This document shows, piece by piece, positions 1,148 through 25,367 of a stretch of DNA of 64,000 nucleotides. Numbering within the stretch: the first letter of the stretch is position 1; the number at the start of each line of letters is the position of its first letter. Made by a program: the position numbers and the translations under genes. This DNA is from Dehalococcoidia bacterium (lineage in GTDB: Bacteria > Chloroflexota > Dehalococcoidia > UBA6926). Under the pieces are notes generated by a model, which worked only from the letters and a program-made list of their open reading frames with translations, searched no databases and had not been told where the DNA came from. The stretch covers positions 786,913 through 850,912 of the forward strand of contig OY762213.1 in the NCBI GenBank assembly GCA_963665385.1. The letters are read 5' to 3'.

Positions 1148-2971
1148 ATGTTGAAGTCACATAGTTGTGGGGAGCTTTCGCCTGCGGAGGCGGGACAGGT
1201 TGTGCGTTTGGCGGGGTGGGTTCATCGCCGTCGGGATCATGGCGGGCTGATATTCCTCGATATGCGGGATCGCACCGGGCTGGTGCAGGTTGTCGTCGAT
1301 CCGTCGGCGGCGGAGTCCGCGTACCAATCCGCGGACGCTCTGCGGAATGAGTGGGTGGTGGCCATCACGGGCGAGGTGCAGGTTCGGCCAGCGGGCACGG
1401 AGAATCCACGCATCGCGACTGGCGGCATCGAGATCCACGCGAGCGAGGTGACGGTGCTTAATCCGTCCAAGACGCCGCCTTTCTACATTAATGAGGAATC
1501 GGACGTCGATGAGTCGCTCCGGCTGCGATATCGATACCTGGACCTGCGGCGGGAGCGGATGGCGGCGAACCTCAGGCTGCGGCATCGCGTCGTGAAGTAC
1601 ATCCGCGATTTCCTGGACGGGCGCGGCTTTTTGGAAGTCGAGACGCCGATGTTGATGAAGAGTACGCCGGAGGGGGCGCGGGACTATCTTGTGCCGTCAC
1701 GGGTTCACCCGGGCCATTTCTATGCGCTGCCACAGTCGCCACAGCAGTTGAAGCAGCTGCTCATGGTGGCGGGTGTGGAGCGATATTTCCAGATTGCGCG
1801 GTGTTTCCGTGATGAGGATCAGCGGGCAGACCGGCAGCCGGAGTTCACGCAGCTTGATTTGGAGATGAGCTTCGTGGACGAGACGGACGTGCTGGACCTG
1901 ATGGAGGAGTTATACACGGGGCTGGCGCAGGCCACCGCGCCGCATATGGGCGTGACGTCGCCGTTTCCACGGATGACGTATGAGGAGGCGATGCGGCGAT
2001 TCGGTTCGGACAAGCCGGACCTGCGTTTCGGGATGGAGATCACGGATATATCGAGCATCGTTGCCGAGAGCGGCGTGGGGGTATTCACGTCGGCGCTTGG
2101 CGAGTCGGGCAGCACGGTGCGGGGAATCGTTGCGCCGGGGTGCGCGGGGTACAGTCGTCGTGAACTTGAGAATCTGACGGAGATTGTTCGCGGGCAGGGC
2201 GCGCGCGGGCTGGCGACCATCGGTCTGGACGCGGAGGCGGGGACGGCGGTCTCCGATCTGCAGTCGGAAAACGTGCGGTCGGCGTTGGCACGTCATCTTG
2301 ATATTGAAACGGTGAGGTCGATTGCGGAGGCGATGGGGGCCGGAGCGGGTGATCTGCTGCTGATTGTGGCGGCGCACGAGGATGTGGTAAGCGCGTCGCT
2401 GAGCGCGCTGCGGACGGAGTTGGGGGAGCGGCTGGAGCTGGCAGATCCGAATGAGTTGGCGTTCGCGTTCGTGACGGAATTCCCTCTATTTGAGGCGGCG
2501 GGTGATGAGGGCGGGCTAAGTTCCGTGCATCATCCGTTCACCGCGCCGGTGCCGGGGGATGCGGGGCTGCTGGAGGAATCGCCGACGGCTGTGCGGTCGC
2601 GGGCGTATGACCTGGTGGTGAACGGGCTGGAGCTGGGGTCGGGTTCGATCAGGATCCATGACCGCGAGCTGCAGGACAGGATTTTCGCGCTGCTGGGGCA
2701 TTCACCGGAGGAAATTGAGGATCGATTCGGACACATGCTGGAGGCGTTCGAGTACGGGGTGCCTCCGCATGGCGGGTTCGCGCCGGGGATCGACCGAACT
2801 GTAATGGTGCTGGCGGGGGAGCCGAATATCCGCGAGGTGATCCCGTTCCCGAAGACGCAGTCGGCACAGGACCTGATGATGAGCGCGCCGTCCACGGTGG
2901 ACGAGCAGCAGCTGGTTGATCTGAATCTGCGGCTGCGAGAAGCCGCGCAAGTGATCGCGGCGTCTGACTGA
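1148..2971 (+). CDS. aspS: Aspartate--tRNA(Asp/Asn) ligase
   Basis: OB-fold GWVHRRRDHGG, LRYRYLDLR, STPEGARD, LPQSPQ, FRDED..ADRQPEFTQLD, GAD insert, PPHGG..GIDR. Confidence 0.97.
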   Translation: MLKSHSCGELSPAEAGQVVRLAGWVHRRRDHGGLIFLDMRDRTGLVQVVVDPSAAESAYQSADALRNEWVVAITGEVQVRPAGTENPRIATGGIEIHASEVTVLNPSKTPPFYINEESDVDESLRLRYRYLDLRRERMAANLRLRHRVVKYIRDFLDGRGFLEVETPMLMKSTPEGARDYLVPSRVHPGHFYALPQSPQQLKQLLMVAGVERYFQIARCFRDEDQRADRQPEFTQLDLEMSFVDETDVLDLMEELYTGLAQATAPHMGVTSPFPRMTYEEAMRRFGSDKPDLRFGMEITDISSIVAESGVGVFTSALGESGSTVRGIVAPGCAGYSRRELENLTEIVRGQGARGLATIGLDAEAGTAVSDLQSENVRSALARHLDIETVRSIAEAMGAGAGDLLLIVAAHEDVVSASLSALRTELGERLELADPNELAFAFVTEFPLFEAAGDEGGLSSVHHPFTAPVPGDAGLLEESPTAVRSRAYDLVVNGLELGSGSIRIHDRELQDRIFALLGHSPEEIEDRFGHMLEAFEYGVPPHGGFAPGIDRTVMVLAGEPNIREVIPFPKTQSAQDLMMSAPSTVDEQQLVDLNLRLREAAQVIAASD

Positions 2972-3039
2972 GTGTTGGGCGCCCCGATGTATAATGTTGT
3001 TCCTGCCTCGTAGCCAATCCGAATACGGAGTTTCCACGC

Positions 3040-4563
3040 GTGAAGATTACAACTGAAGATATGCCTGACCGACAGGTTGGGCTGCTTATTGAGTTGGAAG
3101 AGGCGGAGATTGAGGATCACAAGCAGCGGGCATACCGTCGGCTTGTGCAGCGGTACGTCATTCCGGGCTTTCGGAGAGGCAAGGCTCCGCGCATGATCCT
3201 CGAACGTCATATCGGGGCGGAAACGCTCATCCAGGATGATATCGAGGGGCTGCTGGAGCGGTCGGTGGCGGATGCGGTTGAGCAGCAAGAGCTTGAGCCC
3301 ATCGCGCGGCCGCAGGTAACGGACCTGGAATCGCTTGATCCCATCACGTTCCGCGCCACCGTGGCGCTGCGACCGGAGGTGGAACTCGGTGACTACGAGT
3401 CGATTCGCGTCGACTGGGAGGACCCGGAGGTCCCTGAGGAGCAGGTCGAAGAGGTGCTCAATAACCTCCGCCGGCAGGGCTCGCCGTGGGAGCCAGTGGA
3501 GAGGGCTGTTGAGCTCGGTGATCTGCTGACCGTCGATATGAGCGGTTATGTGGACGAGGACCCCGAGGACGCAGCGGATTCTGAGGACGGCGGTGATGAG
3601 GATTCTGATGGGGAGTCGGAGCCGGCCGCTGAGGCAGACACTGACCCTGATGCGGACGATGCCGATGGAGATGAGTCCAAGGACGAGCCGGAAGTACCCG
3701 GTCGAAGGACGTTCGTCGAGGAGACCGGCATCAGCTATATGGTGCAAGAAGGCGTGACGTATCCCGCGCCGGGTGTGCCGGAGCAGCTCGTCGGCATGAA
3801 CGCGGAGGAGACCAAGGAGTTCACGATCTCCGTGCCGGATGATTTCACGATTCGCGATCTGAATGGCAAAGAGGCGCATTTCACCGTGACGGTCCGCGAG
3901 GTCAAGGAGCAGAATCTGCCGGACCTCGATGACGAATGGGCGCAGGGCGTCGAGGGATTCGGCGACGATGTCTTTGAGACGGTGGAGGCACTGCGAGACC
4001 GGATTCGGGCTGATCTAACGGAGCGGACAGAGGCGCAGACACGCGCCGAATTTGAGGAGAATATCCTCGAGAAGTTCGCAGAGGCCGCGACTGTCACGTA
4101 TCCGCCAATCGTTGTGGACATGGAAGTTGATCGTATCCTGCAGGACCAGGACGAGCAGATGCGGGGAATGGGCATGTCGCTCGCCGCATACGCGCAGTCG
4201 ACGGGCCAGGGCGTAGAGCAGCTGCGCGACACTGTGCGGCCGCAGGCGGAGCAGCGCGTGCTGCGCGGACTGCTGATCACGAACCTGGCTGAATCGACGG
4301 GCATTGAGGCCTCGGACGAGGAAATCGACGATGACATCGCTGAGGTCGTCGGCGCTCAGCAGGATGAGGCGGCGCAGGAGCAGGCGCGACAGGTATTTGA
4401 AAGTGAAGCTGCCCGCGAGAGTGTGGAGCGCAGAATTGTCGCGCGTAAGACAATGGATATGCTGGTAGATATCGCGCGACGGGAGCGCGACGGTTCGGAA
4501 GAGGCCGCCGAGACAGAGGCGGAGACCGAGGCCGACGAGGATTCGGATAACGGGGACGACTAG
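3040..4563 (+). CDS. tig: Trigger factor with acidic insertion
   Basis: Ribosome-binding signature [13 protein letters not shown]-like middle domain, PDLDDEWA; tig-clpP-clpX synteny. Confidence 0.93.
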
Positions 4564-4613
4564 CACCAGCGGGCGCATGGGCCCGACGGACACGTCAGAG
4601 GAGACTTAGCGAA

Positions 4614-5288
4614 ATGACAACGTGGACAGGCGGAACGGGCGAAGGACTGCCGGGTGGAATCGTGCCGGCGGGGCCGCAAGGCATCGTGCCGATGGTCATT
4701 GAGACTGGAGCGCGGGGCGAGCGGGCCTTTGACATCTATTCCCTCCTGCTCAAGGAGCGGATTATCTTTCTTGGCACGCCCATCAATGACCAGATTGCAA
4801 ATCTTGTCGTTGCGCAGCTGCTGTACCTGGACCGGGAAGATCCCGACAAGGACATTTCGCTGTATATCAGCAGCCCGGGCGGCGTCATCACATCCGGTCT
4901 GGCCATCTATGACACGATTCAGTTGATTCGCGCGGACGTTTCCACGATCTGCGTGGGGATGGCGGCAAGCATGGCAACGGTCCTGTTGACTGCTGGAGCG
5001 GCAGGCAAGAGGTACGCCCTGCCGAACTCGACGATTCACATGCACCAGGCCATGGGTGGCGCGCAGGGACAGGCTGCGGATATTGAGATTGCGGCGCGTG
5101 AGATTCTGCGTCTGCAGGAGATCATCCGTGGTATTCTGTCGCGACATTCCGGGCAGCCGGTGGAGAAGGTGGCGCGTGACATGGATCGCGACTACTATCT
5201 CACTGCAGACCAGGCCAGGGAGTACGGCATCGTTGATGAGGTGCTTTCGGGGCCGGAGGACGAGAGCAAAGACGCCAGCGCCGCATAG
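4614..5288 (+). CDS. clpP: ATP-dependent Clp protease proteolytic subunit
   Basis: [18 protein letters not shown], catalytic Ser (GMAASM), His (MHQ), Asp (DRD). Confidence 0.97.
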
Positions 5289-5368
5289 CTGCCAGGAATA
5301 GAGGCCCGTGCGGGACGGGCTTTGGGGTTGCCTTAGACTCGGTGACGGGGAGGAGTAAAGGCAAGGGC

Positions 5369-6706
5369 ATGGTTGACGAGACTAACGGTCGACGAAACGG
5401 CGGCCAGGGAGAAGGGCCGCATCGGTGCTCCTTCTGCGGCAAGCCCGAGGGAACGGTCAGGCTTCTGGCAGGACCGGACCATAAAGCCTATATCTGCGAC
5501 GAGTGTGTTCGCGTCTGCCTGCGCATCCTTGAGGGACGGCCTCGCGGAAAAGGCCGCGATGAGCCGGTGGAAGAAGGACAGGAACAGGAAGAAGAGCCGC
5601 AACCGATTCCCGCCCCTAAAGAGATCTATAACCTGCTGAGCGAGTTCGTTATCGGGCAAGAGCGCGCAAAGCGCGTGCTCAGCGTTGGCGTTTACAACCA
5701 CTACAAGCGCACGAGCGTCAAGAGCGAAGAAAGCCCGGACGTCGAGTTGGACAAGACGAATATCCTGCTCGTCGGACCAACGGGGAGTGGCAAGACACTT
5801 CTCGCGCAGACCCTGGCACGCATCCTGAACGTGCCGTTTGCCATCGCGGATGCAACGTCGCTGACGGAGGCCGGATACGTGGGCGAGGATGTTGAGAACA
5901 TCCTGCTCCGCCTGATACAGGCGGCGGACTATGACGTATCCAAGGCGCAGCGGGGCATCATCTACATCGATGAGATTGACAAGACGGCGCGCAAGAACGC
6001 CAACCCGTCCGTGACGCGTGACGTGTCCGGGGAGGGCGTGCAGCAGGCGTTGCTGAAGATTGTGGAAGGATGCATTGCGAATGTGCCGCCGCAAGGGGGA
6101 CGCAAGCATCCGCAGCAGGAATTCATCCAGATCGACACCAGCGGCATTTTGTTCATCTGCGGCGGGGCGTTCGAGGGGATGGATGAGTTAATTGCCGCCC
6201 GGGTGAACAAGGACAAGCGCAGCATCGGGTTCGGATCAGAGCGAATGGCGGATGATCCGGCAGAACGCAGCCGCGTGATGGCGCAGCTGAGCCACGACGA
6301 TATTCTTTCGTACGGCATGATTCCGGAATTCGTTGGACGGATGCCCCTGGCAGTTGCCCTAGACCCGTTGCAGAAACCTGATCTGCTGGAGGTGCTCACG
6401 AAGCCCAGGAACGCTCTTGTGAAGCAGTATGCAAGCCTTCTGGGGCAGGATGGTGTGAACCTGGAGTTCACGGATGAAGCGCTGGAGGCGGTGGCGGACA
6501 GGGCGCTGTCACAGAAGACGGGCGCGCGCGGACTGCGGACAGTTGTGGAGGAAATCCTGCTCGACGTCATGTACGAGCTGCCGAGCATGGAGGGCATCAC
6601 GCGCTGCCTGATCACCGCTGACACAATTCACAACAAGCTTCCGCCGTTGCTGTTCAACGCCAAGGGCGCGACCGTGGCGCTCAGGCCGGAAGAAGAGAGC
6701 GCCTAA
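5369..6706 (+). CDS. clpX: Clp protease ATP-binding subunit
   Basis: C4 zinc domain [25 protein letters not shown] loop, IGF loop. Alternative GTG start at 5342. Confidence 0.97.
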
Positions 6707-16987: not shown

Positions 16988-17163
16988 GATGGGCCTTTGG
17001 GGTTCGCGGTGCGCGTTCCATCTTGGGCGATGGAGGGGGGGAGCTGTGTTGATGGGCCTATGGGGTTCGCGATGCGCGTCCCATCCTGGGCGGTGGAGAG
17101 GAGAGCTGTGTTGATGGGCCTTGCGGCTTGGGGTGCGCGTTCCGGCGCGAGTGGCTGATGGGC
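16988..17163. repeat. Degenerate tandem repeat (about 62 bp, 2 full plus 1 shorter unit)
   Basis: Units begin GATGGGC at 16988, 17051, 17113 and 17157, sharing GGGGTTCGCG.TGCGCGT.CCATC and GAGCTGTGTT. Confidence 0.8.
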
Positions 17164-17525: not shown

Positions 17526-17606
17526 TAAGTGTCTTTAAACCGTTTGACGCGCGTATTTCGGCCAATCTACACAGCGTCAGACGGGGTTAGCAGGAGGGAG
17601 CAGCGC

Positions 17607-18203
17607 GTGTTTAAAGGGAAAGCATTTTGGATGCCCCTTGTTCTGATTACTGCCTTTATTCTTGTCTTGGCGGCATGTACGGGTCCGGGAGGAGAGCAGG
17701 GTGAGCGAGGCCCCGCGGGCCCCGCAGGAGCGCCCGGCTCGGACGGAGTTGACGGTCAGCAGGGGCCGCCCGGCCAGCCAGGAGAGGCAGGAGCACCCGG
17801 AGAAGCAGGAGCGCCCGGCGCGCCCGGACCGGGAGCCATCAATCCGGAAGCCAATATCAATACGCTCGATCCGAACGTCATTCTCGTTCCGGGAACGACC
17901 CGAGTGACATTCAGGCTGTCCGGCTTCCCACGACGGGATGACGTGACGCTCTACATTCGTGAGGCGCTTGGCGCGGCAACTGATTATGAAATGGGGACCG
18001 CGCAGGTGAATTCATCCGGCGCTCTTGAGATGGTGGTTGGCACCGATCTGTTGCCCGCAATACCTGAGGCTCTGCCACCCGGCGTGTGGACGGTTATCGC
18101 AGTGGGTAGTCGCACTCCGGAGGGAGCGTCCGGACCGGCAGCTGCGAGCACAGCAATCCGCGTCTACGGCCCGGGTGAGGCTCCGACGTTGGGCGGCAAG
18201 TAG
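17607..18203 (+). CDS. Collagen-like (Gly-X-Y) lipoprotein
   Basis: AGGAGG RBS then GTG; hydrophobic signal peptide with lipobox LAAC; uninterrupted G-X-Y run; beta-rich C-terminal domain. Confidence 0.85.
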   Translation: MFKGKAFWMPLVLITAFILVLAACTGPGGEQGERGPAGPAGAPGSDGVDGQQGPPGQPGEAGAPGEAGAPGAPGPGAINPEANINTLDPNVILVPGTTRVTFRLSGFPRRDDVTLYIREALGAATDYEMGTAQVNSSGALEMVVGTDLLPAIPEALPPGVWTVIAVGSRTPEGASGPAAASTAIRVYGPGEAPTLGGK

Positions 18204-21218: not shown

Positions 21219-22355
21219 TTACACCGCTTGGGCAGTAAAAGTAGAGGCTTGCGGCTCCTCGACGGCTACCGTTCGCTCGATTACGCCGCCGCCGAGCATC
21301 CGGCCGTCATTGTAGAGAACGACTGCCTGACCGGGCGTGACGGCCCGCTGCGGCTCGTCAAACTCAAGAGTGAAGCCGTCGCCGTCCGCGTCCGGGATGA
21401 GGAGGGCAGGCGCTTCGGGGGACTTGTACCGCACCTTGGCCAATACGCGCGTCGGGACGCTGCCGGGGGAGACCCCGTCGATATATGTTGCCTGCGCTGC
21501 GCGCAACGAGTCTGCGAGGAGGTGATCCTCCGGGCCGATCACAATGGTGTTCTCGGCGGTGTCGATGTCGATGACGTACATGCGGCGGCCTGCGGGGGAC
21601 GGCGGCAGGCCCTTGCGCTGACCCACTGTGTAGCCCGCAGTTCCCATGTGAGAGCCAACGTGCTTACCGTCGACATCCAGAATGGGACCGGGCGTGAGCG
21701 CCATGTGTTCAGAGAGAAAAGCCCTGTAATTTCCTGAGGGGACGAAGCAGATCTCCTGGCTGTCCGGCTTGTCCGCGACTGGCAGCTCAAGCTCATGGGC
21801 GATGTGCCGCACGTCCTGCTTGGGCAGTTCTCCGATGGGAAACAATGAGCGGCGCAGTTCCTCCTGTCCGAGCCCGTAGAGCACGTACGTCTGGTCCTTG
21901 GAGGCGTCGGCGGCCTTATGCAGCTCAATACGACCGTCCGCGTCGGCGCGGCGTCGAACGTAGTGTCCCGTGGCGATCCAATCTGCCTCGAGCGACAGCG
22001 CCCGCTGCAGAAAGAATGCGAACTTGATCTTGTCGTTGCAGGCGATGCAGGGGTGTGGAGTCCGGCCGTTCTTGTACTCACGAATAAAGTACTCGATGAC
22101 GTGCTTGCGGAACTCCTCCTCCATGTTGAGGACGTAGTGCGGCATATCAAGCTTCTGAGCCACTCGCTTTGCGTCAAACACGTCCTCCACGGAGCAACAG
22201 GCGCGGTTGTGGCGTGACGCGCCCTCCACGTCGTCGCTCCACAGGCGCATCGTCACGCCGATGACATCGTAGCCCTGCTCCTTGAGCAAGTAGGCGGCGA
22301 CGGAGGAATCCACCCCGCCGCTCATGGCGACAATGACTCTCTCTTTGGTATTCAT
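21219..22355 (-). CDS. mnmA: tRNA 2-thiouridylase
   Basis: AMSGGVDSS PP-loop, TPHPCIACNDKIKF, ATGHY, KDQTY, DSQEICF, YTVGQRKG, AVTPGQ. Confidence 0.97.
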   Translation of the reverse strand: MNTKERVIVAMSGGVDSSVAAYLLKEQGYDVIGVTMRLWSDDVEGASRHNRACCSVEDVFDAKRVAQKLDMPHYVLNMEEEFRKHVIEYFIREYKNGRTPHPCIACNDKIKFAFFLQRALSLEADWIATGHYVRRRADADGRIELHKAADASKDQTYVLYGLGQEELRRSLFPIGELPKQDVRHIAHELELPVADKPDSQEICFVPSGNYRAFLSEHMALTPGPILDVDGKHVGSHMGTAGYTVGQRKGLPPSPAGRRMYVIDIDTAENTIVIGPEDHLLADSLRAAQATYIDGVSPGSVPTRVLAKVRYKSPEAPALLIPDADGDGFTLEFDEPQRAVTPGQAVVLYNDGRMLGGGVIERTVAVEEPQASTFTAQAV

Positions 22356-22450
22356 TTCACCTTCTACGATACGGAGTTGGTGGTTGTGCTGCAAAGGCGC
22401 ATCACACTCGACGGTGGAAGAAACGTAAACCGGGCCTGGCCGTTGTGGGG

Positions 22451-23695
22451 TTAGCCCAGCGTTTCATTCACAAGGCGCAGGCCGTCCCGCAGCCGGTGGG
22501 ACCAGTCCTCCCGGGCTCGGCGGATGGTGTTTGTGCATAGCCGGAACAGACAGATAGCCTCGCGATAAGCGAGCTCCGGCTCGCTCCATCCGAAGCGTTC
22601 CAACGCGGCCTCCCTAAAGGACGTGTGGTACGCGGCGAATCTCCCGGCTCGACGTTCGCTGCCAAACGCGCCGGCCCAATTCAAGTGCGCCAGAAAGTTG
22701 CCGATGTCCAGGAGGGGGTCTCCAAGGCCGGCCTCTTCGAAGTCGACGACCGCAATGCGACCGTCATCAAACACCAGCATCTGGTCGTCGTAGAAGTCAT
22801 TGTGGGCTATGCCTGTAGGACGCCACGAATGGACGAAGGGATCCAAGAGCTGCCGGGCTCCATTGAGTTCTCGCAGAGAGGTCTCGTCGTCCTGAACATT
22901 CTGCCCGATGCTGCTCTTTGCTCTCTCATACGCCCCTGCCAGGTTGAAGGAAGGGTTGGTACCGGGATCGGGAGGGGTATCCCACAACGTCTGCAGTCCA
23001 TCCAGAAGCAGCGAAGGCTCCGGGGCCTTGTCCCGCCGAATCTGCTGCCGCAGATTCTTGCCGGGTATCTCCGAGAACCACACCACGCCGCCTTCGGCCC
23101 AATGGCCTGCGAGGCGAGGTGCGACGAATCCGGACTGCGCCATCAGATCATGAGCCCTCAACAGTGGTACGACGGCGTCCGGTCGCATAACTCGCGCATA
23201 GAACTTTGCTCTGCCCGCGCGATGACGCAGCACGGCACGGTTCATAGCCCTGTAACGGATCACATCCACTGCGGCGCGCCGTTCCCGGAACGGCAGTACG
23301 TGCCTGTTGAGCAGTGCAAGAGCCGTGTCCGGATGGGAGGCATCAGGCAGTCCGGGCAGACGCCGATCATGTGGAAACCGGGAGAGCTCGATAGGCCTGC
23401 TTCTCTCCAGGTAGGCGTAGAAATGCTGCAAGGGTAGATACGTGTCAGCATCCCATTCCATCTCGTAACTGACGAGGGCTGTCCTGCCTACGCGGTGAGC
23501 GAACTGACGAATACGAATGTCCTTGGGATCGACTTTCGGGCGTCCGAATTCGCGGCAGTAGGCGCGCCATATCCAGTCGGAATCGAAGAGGCCCGGAAGC
23601 TCACTCAATTGTGGGTCGATGGGGAAACTAACTTCAGGTCGGAGGGGAATAGCCGGTGACGTAGACCGGCTCGCTTCCTCAAGAACTGAGGTCAT
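22451..23695 (-). CDS. Aminoglycoside-phosphotransferase/choline-kinase-fold protein
   Basis: HNDFYDDQ catalytic loop, VVDFE, GDPLLDIGNFLAHL. Start set at MTSVLEE because the upstream in-frame part is the off-frame reading of the neighbouring repeat. Confidence 0.8.
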   Translation of the reverse strand: MTSVLEEASRSTSPAIPLRPEVSFPIDPQLSELPGLFDSDWIWRAYCREFGRPKVDPKDIRIRQFAHRVGRTALVSYEMEWDADTYLPLQHFYAYLERSRPIELSRFPHDRRLPGLPDASHPDTALALLNRHVLPFRERRAAVDVIRYRAMNRAVLRHRAGRAKFYARVMRPDAVVPLLRAHDLMAQSGFVAPRLAGHWAEGGVVWFSEIPGKNLRQQIRRDKAPEPSLLLDGLQTLWDTPPDPGTNPSFNLAGAYERAKSSIGQNVQDDETSLRELNGARQLLDPFVHSWRPTGIAHNDFYDDQMLVFDDGRIAVVDFEEAGLGDPLLDIGNFLAHLNWAGAFGSERRAGRFAAYHTSFREAALERFGWSEPELAYREAICLFRLCTNTIRRAREDWSHRLRDGLRLVNETLG

Positions 23696-24392
23696 TGCTG
23701 TCATCACTATCGTCGCTGTCGTCATTGTCGGTAGGCGTGGGCGTATCGATGCCATCAGAGTCGGTGCCGTCATTGTCGGTAGGCGTCGGGGTATCGATAC
23801 CGTCGGAGTCGGTGCCGTCATTGTCGGTAGGTGTTGGAGTATCGATGCCGTCTGAGTCGGTGTCGTCATTGTCGGTAGGCGTTGGCGTATCTATGCCGTC
23901 TGAGTCGGTACCGTCGTTGTCGGTAGGTGTAGGCGTATCGATGCCGTCTGAGTCGGTACCGTCATTGTCAGTGGGCGTTGGGGTATCGATGCCGTCGGAG
24001 TCGGTACCGTCATTGTCGGTAGGCGTTGGCGTATCTATGCCATCAGAGTCAGTGCCGTCGTGGTCGGTGTTGGCGGTGGTATCGAAGCCGTCGTGGTCGG
24101 TGTTGGCGGTGGTATCGAAGCCGTCGTGGTCGGTATTGGCGGTGGTATCGAAGCCGTCAGAGTCGGTGCCGTCGTTGTCGGTCAGTGGAGGGTCGTCACT
24201 GTCGAGGTCGGGATCGTCCTCGTCATCATCATCAGAACTGTCAGGGTCATTCTCGACTGCCTGTGTACGCGAAGCAGAAGCGGCATCGTCCGGAGAATCA
24301 TCGCTAATGGCGACAGCCACGGTCGCCCAAACCAAAGCCAAGCCCAGTGCCAGCGAGAAGAGGATTGCGCCGAATGCAGTAATTCTGTGCAT
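23679..24392 (-). CDS. Secreted acidic Asp/Thr tandem-repeat protein
   Basis: GAAGGGG RBS; Sec-type signal peptide ending AVA; 3x DGFDTTANTDH and 7x D(G/D)TDSDGIDTPTPTDN; differences between DNA repeats are almost all synonymous in this frame. Confidence 0.85.
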   Translation of the reverse strand: MHRITAFGAILFSLALGLALVWATVAVAISDDSPDDAASASRTQAVENDPDSSDDDDEDDPDLDSDDPPLTDNDGTDSDGFDTTANTDHDGFDTTANTDHDGFDTTANTDHDGTDSDGIDTPTPTDNDGTDSDGIDTPTPTDNDGTDSDGIDTPTPTDNDGTDSDGIDTPTPTDNDDTDSDGIDTPTPTDNDGTDSDGIDTPTPTDNDGTDSDGIDTPTPTDNDDSDDSDDSNDLSS

Positions 24393-24485
24393 TGCCTGAA
24401 CCCCTTCGTCCTTACCTTTCTCTTAGCGTCAACAAGCCGTTCAACGCGGACAGGATAGCACTGTCAAATCCTTCTTGCAGCGTCG

Positions 24486-25367
24486 TCAACCGGCTAAGCC
24501 GAGAACACCGACGGCAATGATGGCCAACACCAGGCCGCCGCCCTTGCTCCAGTTCATCTCCTCCTTGAGGAATATCACCGCCAGGATAGCGGTGATGACG
24601 AAGCTCATCTGCACGATGGGATAGCTGATGCTGGCGTCACCGATGCGGAGGGACTCGAACAAGAGGACCGCCCACGTGACCTGGATGACTGCAATGCCCG
24701 GGGCGAATTGGGCGACGGGGCGGGTAATGCTGAAGTTGCGCCTTCGCAGCAGTGTGATGATGGCGGCCTGCTGGAAACCGACGGTCTGTGTGAGAACCAT
24801 GGGAATCGCGCCAATGTCGCCGGTATCGAGGCCGGCCTTGGAGATCAGTCCGGCGACCCCAAAGAAGCCGGATGCTGCAACCGCCAGAAGGATTGACCGG
24901 AGGTCGGAGCGGATGGCGGAGATCTGGGTGATGTTCAAAAGGACGAGGACGGCCAGGACAGCCAGGAGGATGCCTCCAAGCTTTATCGGGTCGGCGGACT
25001 CACCGAGGATGACTATTGCGCCCAACGCCGTGACGACGAAGTTGAGCCTGAATATAGGCGCGTTGACACTCGCGTCCCCCGTGCGGAGACTCGCCACAAA
25101 GAGCGTCAATCCCACGTAGCCGAACACGCCTGCGGGCACCCCGTAGAGCCATGTGCTCCTGTGGATGAAGTCTACTGGGCCGTCATCTCCGAAAAGGACC
25201 CAACTCGAGACGGCCACACCCCAGATGATTGCCGTGAAGATGGTCGATTGCCAGAAGATAAAGTTGGGGGCGTCAATGCCGCGCTGTTGGGCGACACGAT
25301 AGAGCAGGTCGGCAACTGCGCCGAGGAGGAGGGCGGCGACGGCAAGTGTGACAGCCAGGGAATCCAT
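24486..25367 (-). CDS. EamA/DMT-family transporter
   Basis: Two repeated hydrophobic halves with GDAS..API/YPI and ILGE/FLKE motifs. Confidence 0.88.
   Translation of the reverse strand: MDSLAVTLAVAALLLGAVADLLYRVAQQRGIDAPNFIFWQSTIFTAIIWGVAVSSWVLFGDDGPVDFIHRSTWLYGVPAGVFGYVGLTLFVASLRTGDASVNAPIFRLNFVVTALGAIVILGESADPIKLGGILLAVLAVLVLLNITQISAIRSDLRSILLAVAASGFFGVAGLISKAGLDTGDIGAIPMVLTQTVGFQQAAIITLLRRRNFSITRPVAQFAPGIAVIQVTWAVLLFESLRIGDASISYPIVQMSFVITAILAVIFLKEEMNWSKGGGLVLAIIAVGVLGLAG

Follow-up and report, generated by a model that had tools for sequence, protein, structure and literature searches.

The CotH kinase poly-phosphorylates the Ser-repeat coat proteins CotB and CotG, its gene is clustered with theirs, and the phosphorylated products pattern a surface layer (PMC7821199, accessible part). 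The class V lanthipeptide kinases (LanK) CaoK and LxmK (PDB 9dk1) are stand-alone enzymes resembling aminoglycoside phosphotransferases (APHs), which act iteratively on Ser and Thr through leader recognition; in the case of CaoK, the substrate is a ribosomal peptide (PMC9486802, accessible part). GtfA/B, dedicated enzymes encoded nearby, modify serine-rich repeat adhesins inside the cytoplasm before these are exported by an accessory Sec system (PMC5578698, likewise in its accessible part). Here, we describe a two-gene cassette on the minus strand of a 64,000-nucleotide stretch of the genome of a Dehalococcoidia bacterium (assembly GCA_963665385.1, contig OY762213.1, positions 786,913 to 850,912; hereafter the window), in which a gene for an APH-type kinase overlaps the end of a gene for a signal-bearing, acidic Asp/Thr repeat protein. 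The two genes are a real, fixed and mobile unit shared by uncultured members of three phyla (Chloroflexota, Actinomycetota and Deinococcota). The cassette resembles CotH with CotB/CotG in its logic and would resemble LanK in its chemistry; the staphylococcal SDR proteins with SdgA/B are comparable modified repeat surface proteins.

Unlike CotH, the kinase has an APH/choline-kinase fold, the repeats of its partner are acidic, Thr-rich and free of Lys instead of SKR-type, the partner carries a Sec-type signal and the hosts are presumably not spore formers. LxmK (loop HCDLRFDQ) and the window kinase share the patterns HxDxxxDQ and D[FW]EE, but in contrast to the LanK systems the cassette contains no LanY/HopA1 lyase, cyclase or Cys, the loop has Tyr for Arg, the kinase has an extra N-terminal part, and the candidate substrate is a protein of 100–800 residues with an export signal. 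The serine-rich repeat system differs in that its enzyme is a glycosyltransferase and not a kinase, and the present cassette consists of two genes only: no secA2/secY2 or glycosyltransferase gene is conserved within 8 kb of the 80 related loci described below (secA2 elsewhere in the genome was not searched for). The APH kinases of GT28-GT4-GT4-ABC clusters (glycosyltransferases and an ATP-binding cassette exporter, in some cases with alginate-export genes) in Proteobacteria and Nitrospirota are of the same kinase branch, with a Y[KR]PxxR N-lobe motif and an HxDxxxxQ loop; however, they are often tandem or double and fall outside the partner-linked clades of the tree, where long branches make their placement unsure. 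Judged by these comparisons, the cassette is not an APH(3'), LanK/LanY, CotH, TSP3_bac or accessory-Sec system. No description of the pair, or of the GT-ABC-APH cluster, was found in the literature searched, subscription papers and supplements lying outside its scope and a mention in a genome-mining table being possible; within that literature the two-gene system is undescribed. The word kinase is absent from the accessible part of one paper that discusses the fibronectin and cadherin adhesins found in sponge symbionts (PMC8163846).

A GTDB scan yielded 256 relatives of the kinase, and the best 80 (51–95% identity; the near-clade kinases) were examined, spanning Dehalococcoidia/SAR202, Caldilineaceae, Anaerolineae, Acidimicrobiia and Trueperaceae. 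The first-pass annotation of the window had proposed that co-occurrence of this kinase subfamily with acidic secreted repeat proteins be checked, and the link is borne out from both sides. A same-strand Asp/Thr repeat open reading frame (ORF) lies just upstream of the kinase gene in 79 of the 80 loci, several of these partners being broken or cut by contig ends, and the lone miss (L075) has merely 50 nt of upstream DNA. Conversely, the repeat protein was matched in 15 of 401 sampled Dehalococcoidia genomes, 14 of which are exactly the 14 genomes with a near-clade kinase (21 genomes are kinase-positive overall). The distance from repeat-gene stop to kinase start is at most 30 nt in 59 of 68 scorable loci, and in the window the kinase ATG lies 17 nt within the repeat gene, as the annotation had stated, the exact start being a prediction. 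As a control, one fixed composition filter was applied to all ORFs of the source genome (1.99 Mb, 92% complete) and to the partners; the partner was the only ORF of the genome to pass, and among the 79 partners 66 passed, while the other 13 mostly have extra domains or fewer acidic residues. An all-against-all comparison of 1,195 flanking ORFs from the 80 loci, taken up to 8 kb, revealed no third conserved gene, the next cluster being present at 9 loci. Relatedness among the genomes and movement of the cassette as a block mean that these locus counts are not independent, and they are not used as statistics.

The pair also occurs as one polypeptide. P0123 (632 residues) and L207 (a 659-codon open frame), two independent sequences that are 56% identical to each other, contain in a single frame a signal peptide, the Arg motif described below, an Asp tract, repeats, a polybasic linker and the kinase, in this order, and a third case, P0170, is garbled. 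P0123 is located at the base of the near clade in a quick tree. It was not found in Acidimicrobiia (301 and 29 genomes), and an initial metagenome scan with P0123 alone as query gave no match. In both P0123 and L207 (positions 3782–5758) the Arg-plus-acidic-tract motif is present twice and the polybasic linker lies just before the kinase; a separate kinase may be made from an internal start. Three further candidates (L106, L094 and L200) were rejected as fusions, their long kinase frames being repeat shadows in another frame.

Of 22 genomes of the same genus, 3 have the full cassette between the EamA transporter gene and mnmA and a fourth has it elsewhere. At the four empty sites that were retrieved (G003, G004, G007 and G011), the two flanking genes are next to each other; the cassette is hence an insertion at this site. 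In the quick tree, which is unrooted and was made without a clade test, the kinases of Acidimicrobiia and Trueperaceae are nested in the near clade among those of Chloroflexota (support 99), suggesting transfer. The first-pass annotation had called the two genes a substrate–enzyme pair. The linkage part of this claim stands on the locus counts in both directions, the fusions and the partners that co-vary in distant clades; its enzymatic part is kept conditional in what follows.

The 237-residue repeat protein of the window has a hydrophobic N-terminus ending in AVA (17-residue hydropathy 2.3) and no Cys. From residue 30 onwards it contains no Lys, one Arg, 71 Asp, 40 Thr and 20 Ser residues, with a net charge of -72. 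Tandem Repeats Finder (TRF) reports 7.4 copies of a 48-bp unit and 3.2 copies of a 33-bp unit, and the three 11-residue and seven 16-residue repeats, the Asp/Ser tail and the composition of the mature chain noted in the first-pass annotation are all present as described. The seven 48-bp units vary at 13 columns, 12 of which are third codon positions (binomial 1.7e-5, assuming independent columns), and pairwise codon differences are 114 synonymous versus 6 non-synonymous. This bias, from which selection on the peptide had been concluded, is itself genuine; as evidence for the strand it fails, since an antisense ORF (23695–24399, plus strand, 234 residues, rich in Ser, Val and Gly) shares the third codon positions of the repeat gene and scores 111 versus 12, so that synonymy alone cannot choose between them. 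The coding strand is settled by the signal peptide, the AAGGGG resembling a ribosome-binding site and the homologues, and the antisense ORF is rejected as a gene and regarded as a shadow of the repeat gene. The 11-residue repeat is present in 2 to 4 copies in the close relatives L002/L003, the 16-residue repeat is also found in other phyla and in the fusion L207, and partner lengths across the family range from 112 to 816 residues. A hydrophobic N-terminus (hydropathy above 1.8) is found in 67 of 68 upstream ORFs to which a start could be given, some with a lipobox-like Cys; export by the Tat pathway is not favoured, twin Arg residues being seen by eye in few N-termini.

The resemblance of the repeats to thrombospondin-3-type Ca2+ sites, raised in the annotation, does not amount to membership. 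The TSP3_bac model (PF18884) misses both the window protein and the partner L013 and matches the true TSP3 repeats of L149, used as positive control, with 129 bits. Only one exact DxDxDG is present in the repeat ORF, and the form that is repeated, T-D-x-D-G, has no Asp at position 1. L149 itself (462–1325), the partner of a far-clade kinase, combines true TSP3_bac repeats with Asp-Ser-Pro repeats; by sequence, at least one member of the partner family would thus carry a recognised motif for Ca2+ binding. An ESM Atlas search with the window partner gave a 0.76 lead.

The lone Arg of the mature chain is the best-conserved partner residue (94% of 67 aligned N-termini, and invariant in a hand-chosen set of 42 sequences) and forms a hydrophobic-Arg motif preceding the Asp tract. 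Of 75 partners that could be scored, 67 have it no more than 16 residues from their first acidic tract, against 0.9% Arg in the background; among the 8 others, 5 are truncated, 1 was missed by the filter and 2 are genuine exceptions. Some partners carry LysM or SLH domains (Pfam), and repeats are also fused to domains resembling fibronectin type III (fn3). In the LysM and SLH partners the motif is often found directly ahead of the repeat block, 150–250 residues past the signal; since it stays with the repeats behind these domains, it is part of the repeat module and not of the export signal. It may mark the place where the kinase docks or where the chain is cleaved.

More distant kinases retain a partner whose repeats have been rewritten. 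In a second clade, the partners share the signal, an Arg/Lys motif and the Asp tract but have Ser-Pro repeats, and they are encoded directly upstream of the kinase at L112, L232, L234–L238, L243, L245 and L246; among the metagenome loci L231–L251, 8 of 21 had too little upstream DNA to be scored. In far-clade kinases (21–27% identity), a secreted Asp-Ser/Ser-Pro repeat ORF follows the kinase gene in 4 of 4 Dehalococcoidia loci, each of which also has a histidine kinase and a response regulator beside the pair, and an S-P/D-S repeat ORF lies nearby in 20 of 21 Acidimicrobiia loci (a reader's judgement; one of these ORFs is divergent and one has few repeats). Some partners are low in Asp (L141, L156, L160 and L237) and one consists mostly of Thr and Ala (L230), so the hydroxy residues Ser and Thr, and not Asp, are the constant feature of the partners. 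A different arrangement is seen at L120 (genome G305, 1766–4328), where a gene resembling those for extracytoplasmic function (ECF) sigma factors and one for an anti-sigma-like protein ending in Ser-Pro-Val repeats precede a second-clade kinase, which was possibly recruited to sigma-factor control.

The window kinase is a member of the broad APH/choline kinase family (PF01636, 49.3 bits against a cut-off of 23.2, E 7e-13), and a Pfam scan to E 0.1 matched APH and Choline_kinase only, and not CotH. It falls far below the cut-offs of the specific NCBIfam models GntI (27.8 of 357 bits), LxmK (27.3 of 315) and APH(3') (16.6 of 205) and belongs to a tight, unnamed family of about 406 residues with 417 matches, the best 120 of which, self excluded, are 53–66% identical. 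Its AlphaFold model (pLDDT 91.8) has the two lobes of the ELK kinase fold and is matched about equally by methylthioribose kinase (2olc; Z 21.2, rmsd 4.1, 290 residues aligned), APHs, choline kinases and LxmK (Z 18.7, rmsd 3.7, 277 aligned), at identities of 9–20% and over residues 106–414. At its N-terminus the kinase has roughly 100 additional residues, which resemble the beginning of the N-lobe in the manner of a weak internal repeat (hhalign 41%, E 3e-4) and, when modelled alone from one sequence, reach a poor pLDDT of 52; no signal or membrane segment was found in the kinase (hydropathy at most 0.9). Asp300, Gln305 and Asp318 are present in all 80 near-clade kinases. So is Tyr302, at a loop position held by Lys or Arg in protein kinases and by Arg in LxmK. 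At the beta-3 position, all 80 near-clade and all 9 second-clade kinases have Arg, and all 24 far-clade ones have Lys. Near-clade kinases have 24 conserved Arg/Lys positions and a median isoelectric point (pI) of 9.4, compared with 5.2 for 725 long ORFs of the source genome. A search of PDB sequences with profile A1 gave no match, profiles P0001 and A5 gave weak generic APH matches only, and an ESM Atlas search with the kinase returned only clusters named APH. A complex prediction for kinase residues 12–414 with partner residues 1–62 (score 0.01, mark 0.32) is used neither for nor against binding.

We consider it reasonably likely that the kinase poly-phosphorylates Thr and Ser residues of its repeat partner, which is then exported. 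This reading starts from the observed pairing, fusions, intact kinase motifs, signal-type N-termini and surface anchors (LysM and SLH), from which we infer every catalytic step. The overlapping genes would be co-translated, and the basic kinase, probably by means of its extra N-terminal part, would dock on the hydrophobic-Arg motif and the Asp tract. Thr residues would then be phosphorylated in D-T, T-P and T-D contexts, and Ser in the S-P partners of other clades; phosphorylation of the unfolded pre-protein is placed in the cytoplasm, the location of ATP. Subsequently, Sec would export the chain, which would be retained by a lipid anchor, LysM or SLH, or be released. As many as 60 acceptor sites are available in a 208-residue chain that starts out at -72, and the product would be an extreme polyanion binding Ca2+ or other cations at the cell surface. 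The resulting polymer may be likened to phosphophoryn or osteopontin. SIBLING proteins, phosphophoryn and casein, the substrates of Fam20C, are secreted, disordered Asp/Ser-rich proteins to which the kinase adds negative charge and which bind Ca2+ and steer mineral growth; Fam20C is unrelated to APH kinases and acts inside the secretory pathway, and the comparison is an analogy only. A wider proposal, which we put forward tentatively and hold somewhat doubtful, is that the kinase recognises an internal Arg/poly-Asp tag for docking and places dozens of phosphates on any Thr- or Ser-repeat block that follows it, and that the product is exported to lipid, LysM, SLH or fibronectin anchors as a Ca2+- or mineral-binding coat of tunable length, by a cassette swapped among Chloroflexota, Actinomycetota and Deinococcota; this would be an independent bacterial counterpart of animal secreted-phosphoprotein biomineralisation. 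If so, the fusions would mean that the kinase can work even at or beyond the membrane.

CotH, CaoK and the serine-rich repeat adhesins provide precedents for this mechanism, and a number of observations weigh against it. The fold does not discriminate, and the best matches are small-molecule kinases, with methylthioribose kinase (Z 21.2) ahead of LxmK (Z 18.7). The basic residue of the catalytic loop, which has been argued to be needed for action on amino-acid hydroxyls (PMC4702295, accessible part), is absent, Tyr302 being found in its place in 80 of 80 kinases, and the beta-3 Lys is replaced by Arg. The kinase lacks a signal while its partner has one, the fusions place the kinase behind a signal peptide, unlike a purely cytoplasmic enzyme, and the window kinase itself is not basic (pI 6.9). 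Partners are divergent at L244 and L248 of the second clade and at L146, no clear partner was seen at L249 and none was found at L145, a far-clade Acidimicrobiia locus. The outgroup kinases sit in GT28-GT4-GT4-ABC clusters, and no repeat ORF was found in the three of three such loci read. Related genomes and block movement, as said above, make the pairing counts non-independent. Part of this evidence would suit a kinase that phosphorylates a sugar, a reading that we regard as unlikely. The target would be an O-glycan carried by the Thr/Ser repeats, or else a sugar donor or small metabolite with which the partner is decorated. Methylthioribose, maltose and glucosamine kinases are among the top fold matches, the nearest outgroup kinases belong to glycosyltransferase, ABC exporter and alginate-export clusters, the catalytic loop has no basic residue and the source genome contains two PMT_2-family genes. 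Thr-Pro repeats are typical O-mannosylation sites, yet PMT-type glycosylation takes place outside the membrane, away from a signal-less kinase. No glycosyltransferase is conserved near any of the 80 loci, and recognition of a protein better accounts for the fusions, for the Arg motif and for a pairing that is strictly one to one.

About equally improbable is a signalling or gating module, in which the enzyme, be it a kinase or a pseudo-kinase of weak activity, controls the partner's export or the partner's action on a sensor by binding or phosphorylating it, the acidic chain being a cation sensor and not a structural polymer. The two-component genes beside the far-clade Dehalococcoidia pairs (4 of 4), the ECF-sigma-like and anti-sigma-like genes directly before the L120 kinase (labels given by sequence resemblance) and the Arg at the beta-3 position are consistent with such a role, but no regulator is conserved near the 80 near-clade loci, the free variation in repeat number (112 to 816 residues) and the LysM, SLH and fn3-like fusions suit a bulk surface polymer, and Asp300, Gln305 and Asp318 are invariant. 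The first-pass annotation had also suggested a multi-core modified peptide, that is, a ribosomal precursor whose phospho-Thr and phospho-Ser residues are eliminated, or which is cut into small modified peptides, as in class V lanthipeptides. Weak similarity to LxmK (NCBIfam E 1.8e-6; PDB E 0.025), a leader-like Arg motif and identical repeated units could be read in this way; however, the LxmK model scores 27.3 bits against its cut-off of 315, no HopA1-type lyase (PF17914) was found in the 92%-complete genome (the control was matched in 1 of 14), no lyase, protease or transporter is conserved at the 80 loci, the protein lacks Cys, and partners carry Sec or lipoprotein signals and cell-wall anchors. 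We therefore consider this suggestion highly improbable. Lower still do we rate mere linkage, with two neighbours joined by shared history and a kinase acting as an ordinary small-molecule or antibiotic kinase. Small-molecule kinases, APH(3') among them, are related to it, and block movement of the cassette inflates the co-occurrence counts, but the link persists across kinases that are only 21–27% identical, even where gene order, strand and repeats have changed, fused forms occur, and the resistance-type profile is far below its cut-off (16.6 versus 205 bits).

The pairing gives a large unassigned branch of the so-called aminoglycoside phosphotransferases (1,327 cluster representatives, E up to 1e-10) a concrete candidate substrate and speaks against annotating that branch as resistance genes. 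If poly-phosphorylation takes place, the cassette would represent a further bacterial route to exported poly-phosphoproteins, with the logic of CotH and of the glycosylated repeat adhesins and a different chemistry, and it raises the question of how a kinase in the cytoplasm gets hold of a protein bound for Sec export. Candidate roles of the product are the capture of ions or phosphate, the control of minerals, shielding and adhesion, and a kinase-plus-tag pair functional in Escherichia coli would be a simple tool for making phosphorylated polyanions.

Table 1. Features of the cassette and their positions in the window.
Feature	Position	Strand	Basis
Acidic Asp/Thr/Ser/Pro repeat gene, 237 residues, proposed substrate	23679..24392	-	ORF; upstream homologues in 79/80 kinase loci
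Predicted Sec signal peptide, residues 1-28, putative AVA cleavage site	24309..24392	-	Sequence, hydropathy 2.3
Shine-Dalgarno-like AAGGGG, 8 nt ahead of repeat-gene ATG	24401..24406	-	Sequence
Arg42, lone Arg of mature repeat protein; candidate kinase docking or cleavage site	24267..24269	-	Family conservation
Poly-Asp tract, residues 49-67, after Arg motif	24192..24248	-	Sequence, family N-terminus alignment
3 x 11-residue repeat (33 bp), residues 79-111	24060..24158	-	TRF, sequence
7 x 16-residue repeat (48 bp), residues 112-223, copies diverged synonymously	23724..24059	-	TRF, codon comparison
Asp/Ser tail running into kinase start	23682..23723	-	Sequence; tails alike across family
APH/choline-kinase-fold kinase gene, 414 residues, without signal peptide	22451..23695	-	PF01636, model, fold matches
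Catalytic loop HNDFYDDQ (residues 298-305): Asp300; Gln305 replaces the usual Asn	22781..22804	-	Conservation, 80/80 near-clade kinases
Metal-binding DFE (residues 318-320), Asp318	22736..22744	-	Sequence, conservation
Arg168 at the place of the ATP-binding beta-3 Lys	23192..23194	-	Aligned to LFVKV of APH(3')-VIII
Two-gene cassette, approximate limits, inserted between EamA gene and mnmA	22397..24478	.	Empty-site comparison

The kinase gene and the repeat gene lie between the EamA transporter gene and mnmA, and no sigma-70 promoter or intrinsic terminator was found in 22300–24600. Short-read contigs from two runs, one of which may be the source sample, cover 22400–23763 including the gene overlap with zero differences; they break within the repeats, so that repeat number is not resolvable from them. 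Short contigs of a depth far above that of the genome itself match the repeat DNA (23711–24193) and the catalytic-loop DNA (22775–22812), which suggests that related cassettes are present in further organisms of these communities. Runs labelled sponge or viral metagenome were also matched, at a small share, and a sponge habitat is a presumption for these taxa.

The gap between the EamA gene and mnmA is an insertion hotspot. In genomes G019 (L197) and G010 (L003), an extra ORF of about 100 residues, which we take to be HicB-like, is present between the cassette and mnmA; in G019 it is flanked by a direct repeat of about 20 bp, and G015 (L193) has the ORF without the kinase cassette. One Trueperaceae genome, G404, contains three distant cassette copies (L071, L073 and L076) that are 94–98% identical over 1.3–1.6 kb, pointing to recent duplication, and their partners are in differing states: whole, N-terminally broken and reduced to a 41-residue remnant. 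At L045, the kinase is in two pieces and the partner is split, as in a decaying copy or an assembly error. The fifteenth repeat-positive Dehalococcoidia genome (L176, G355) has an orphan, interrupted repeat gene with no adjacent kinase and a tRNA-like gene alongside. A scan of viral contigs for relatives gave 12 pattern matches, none of which was confirmed.

The GT28-GT4-GT4-ABC-APH cluster of the outgroup kinases is located on plasmids of Paracoccus and Ca. Manganitrophus and on large E. coli plasmids (L129, L130 and L131), and L130 and L131 also encode a porin of the alginate-export family, with a nucleotide-sugar dehydrogenase besides in L131; 10 Escherichia records were matched, one of which was read. 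Elsewhere in the window, a 63-bp tandem repeat of 2.5 copies lies at 16988–17143 beside a sequence resembling tRNA genes, and a 224-residue ORF at 17529–18203 (plus strand) has a lipoprotein-like signal and a collagen-like Gly-X-Y stretch.

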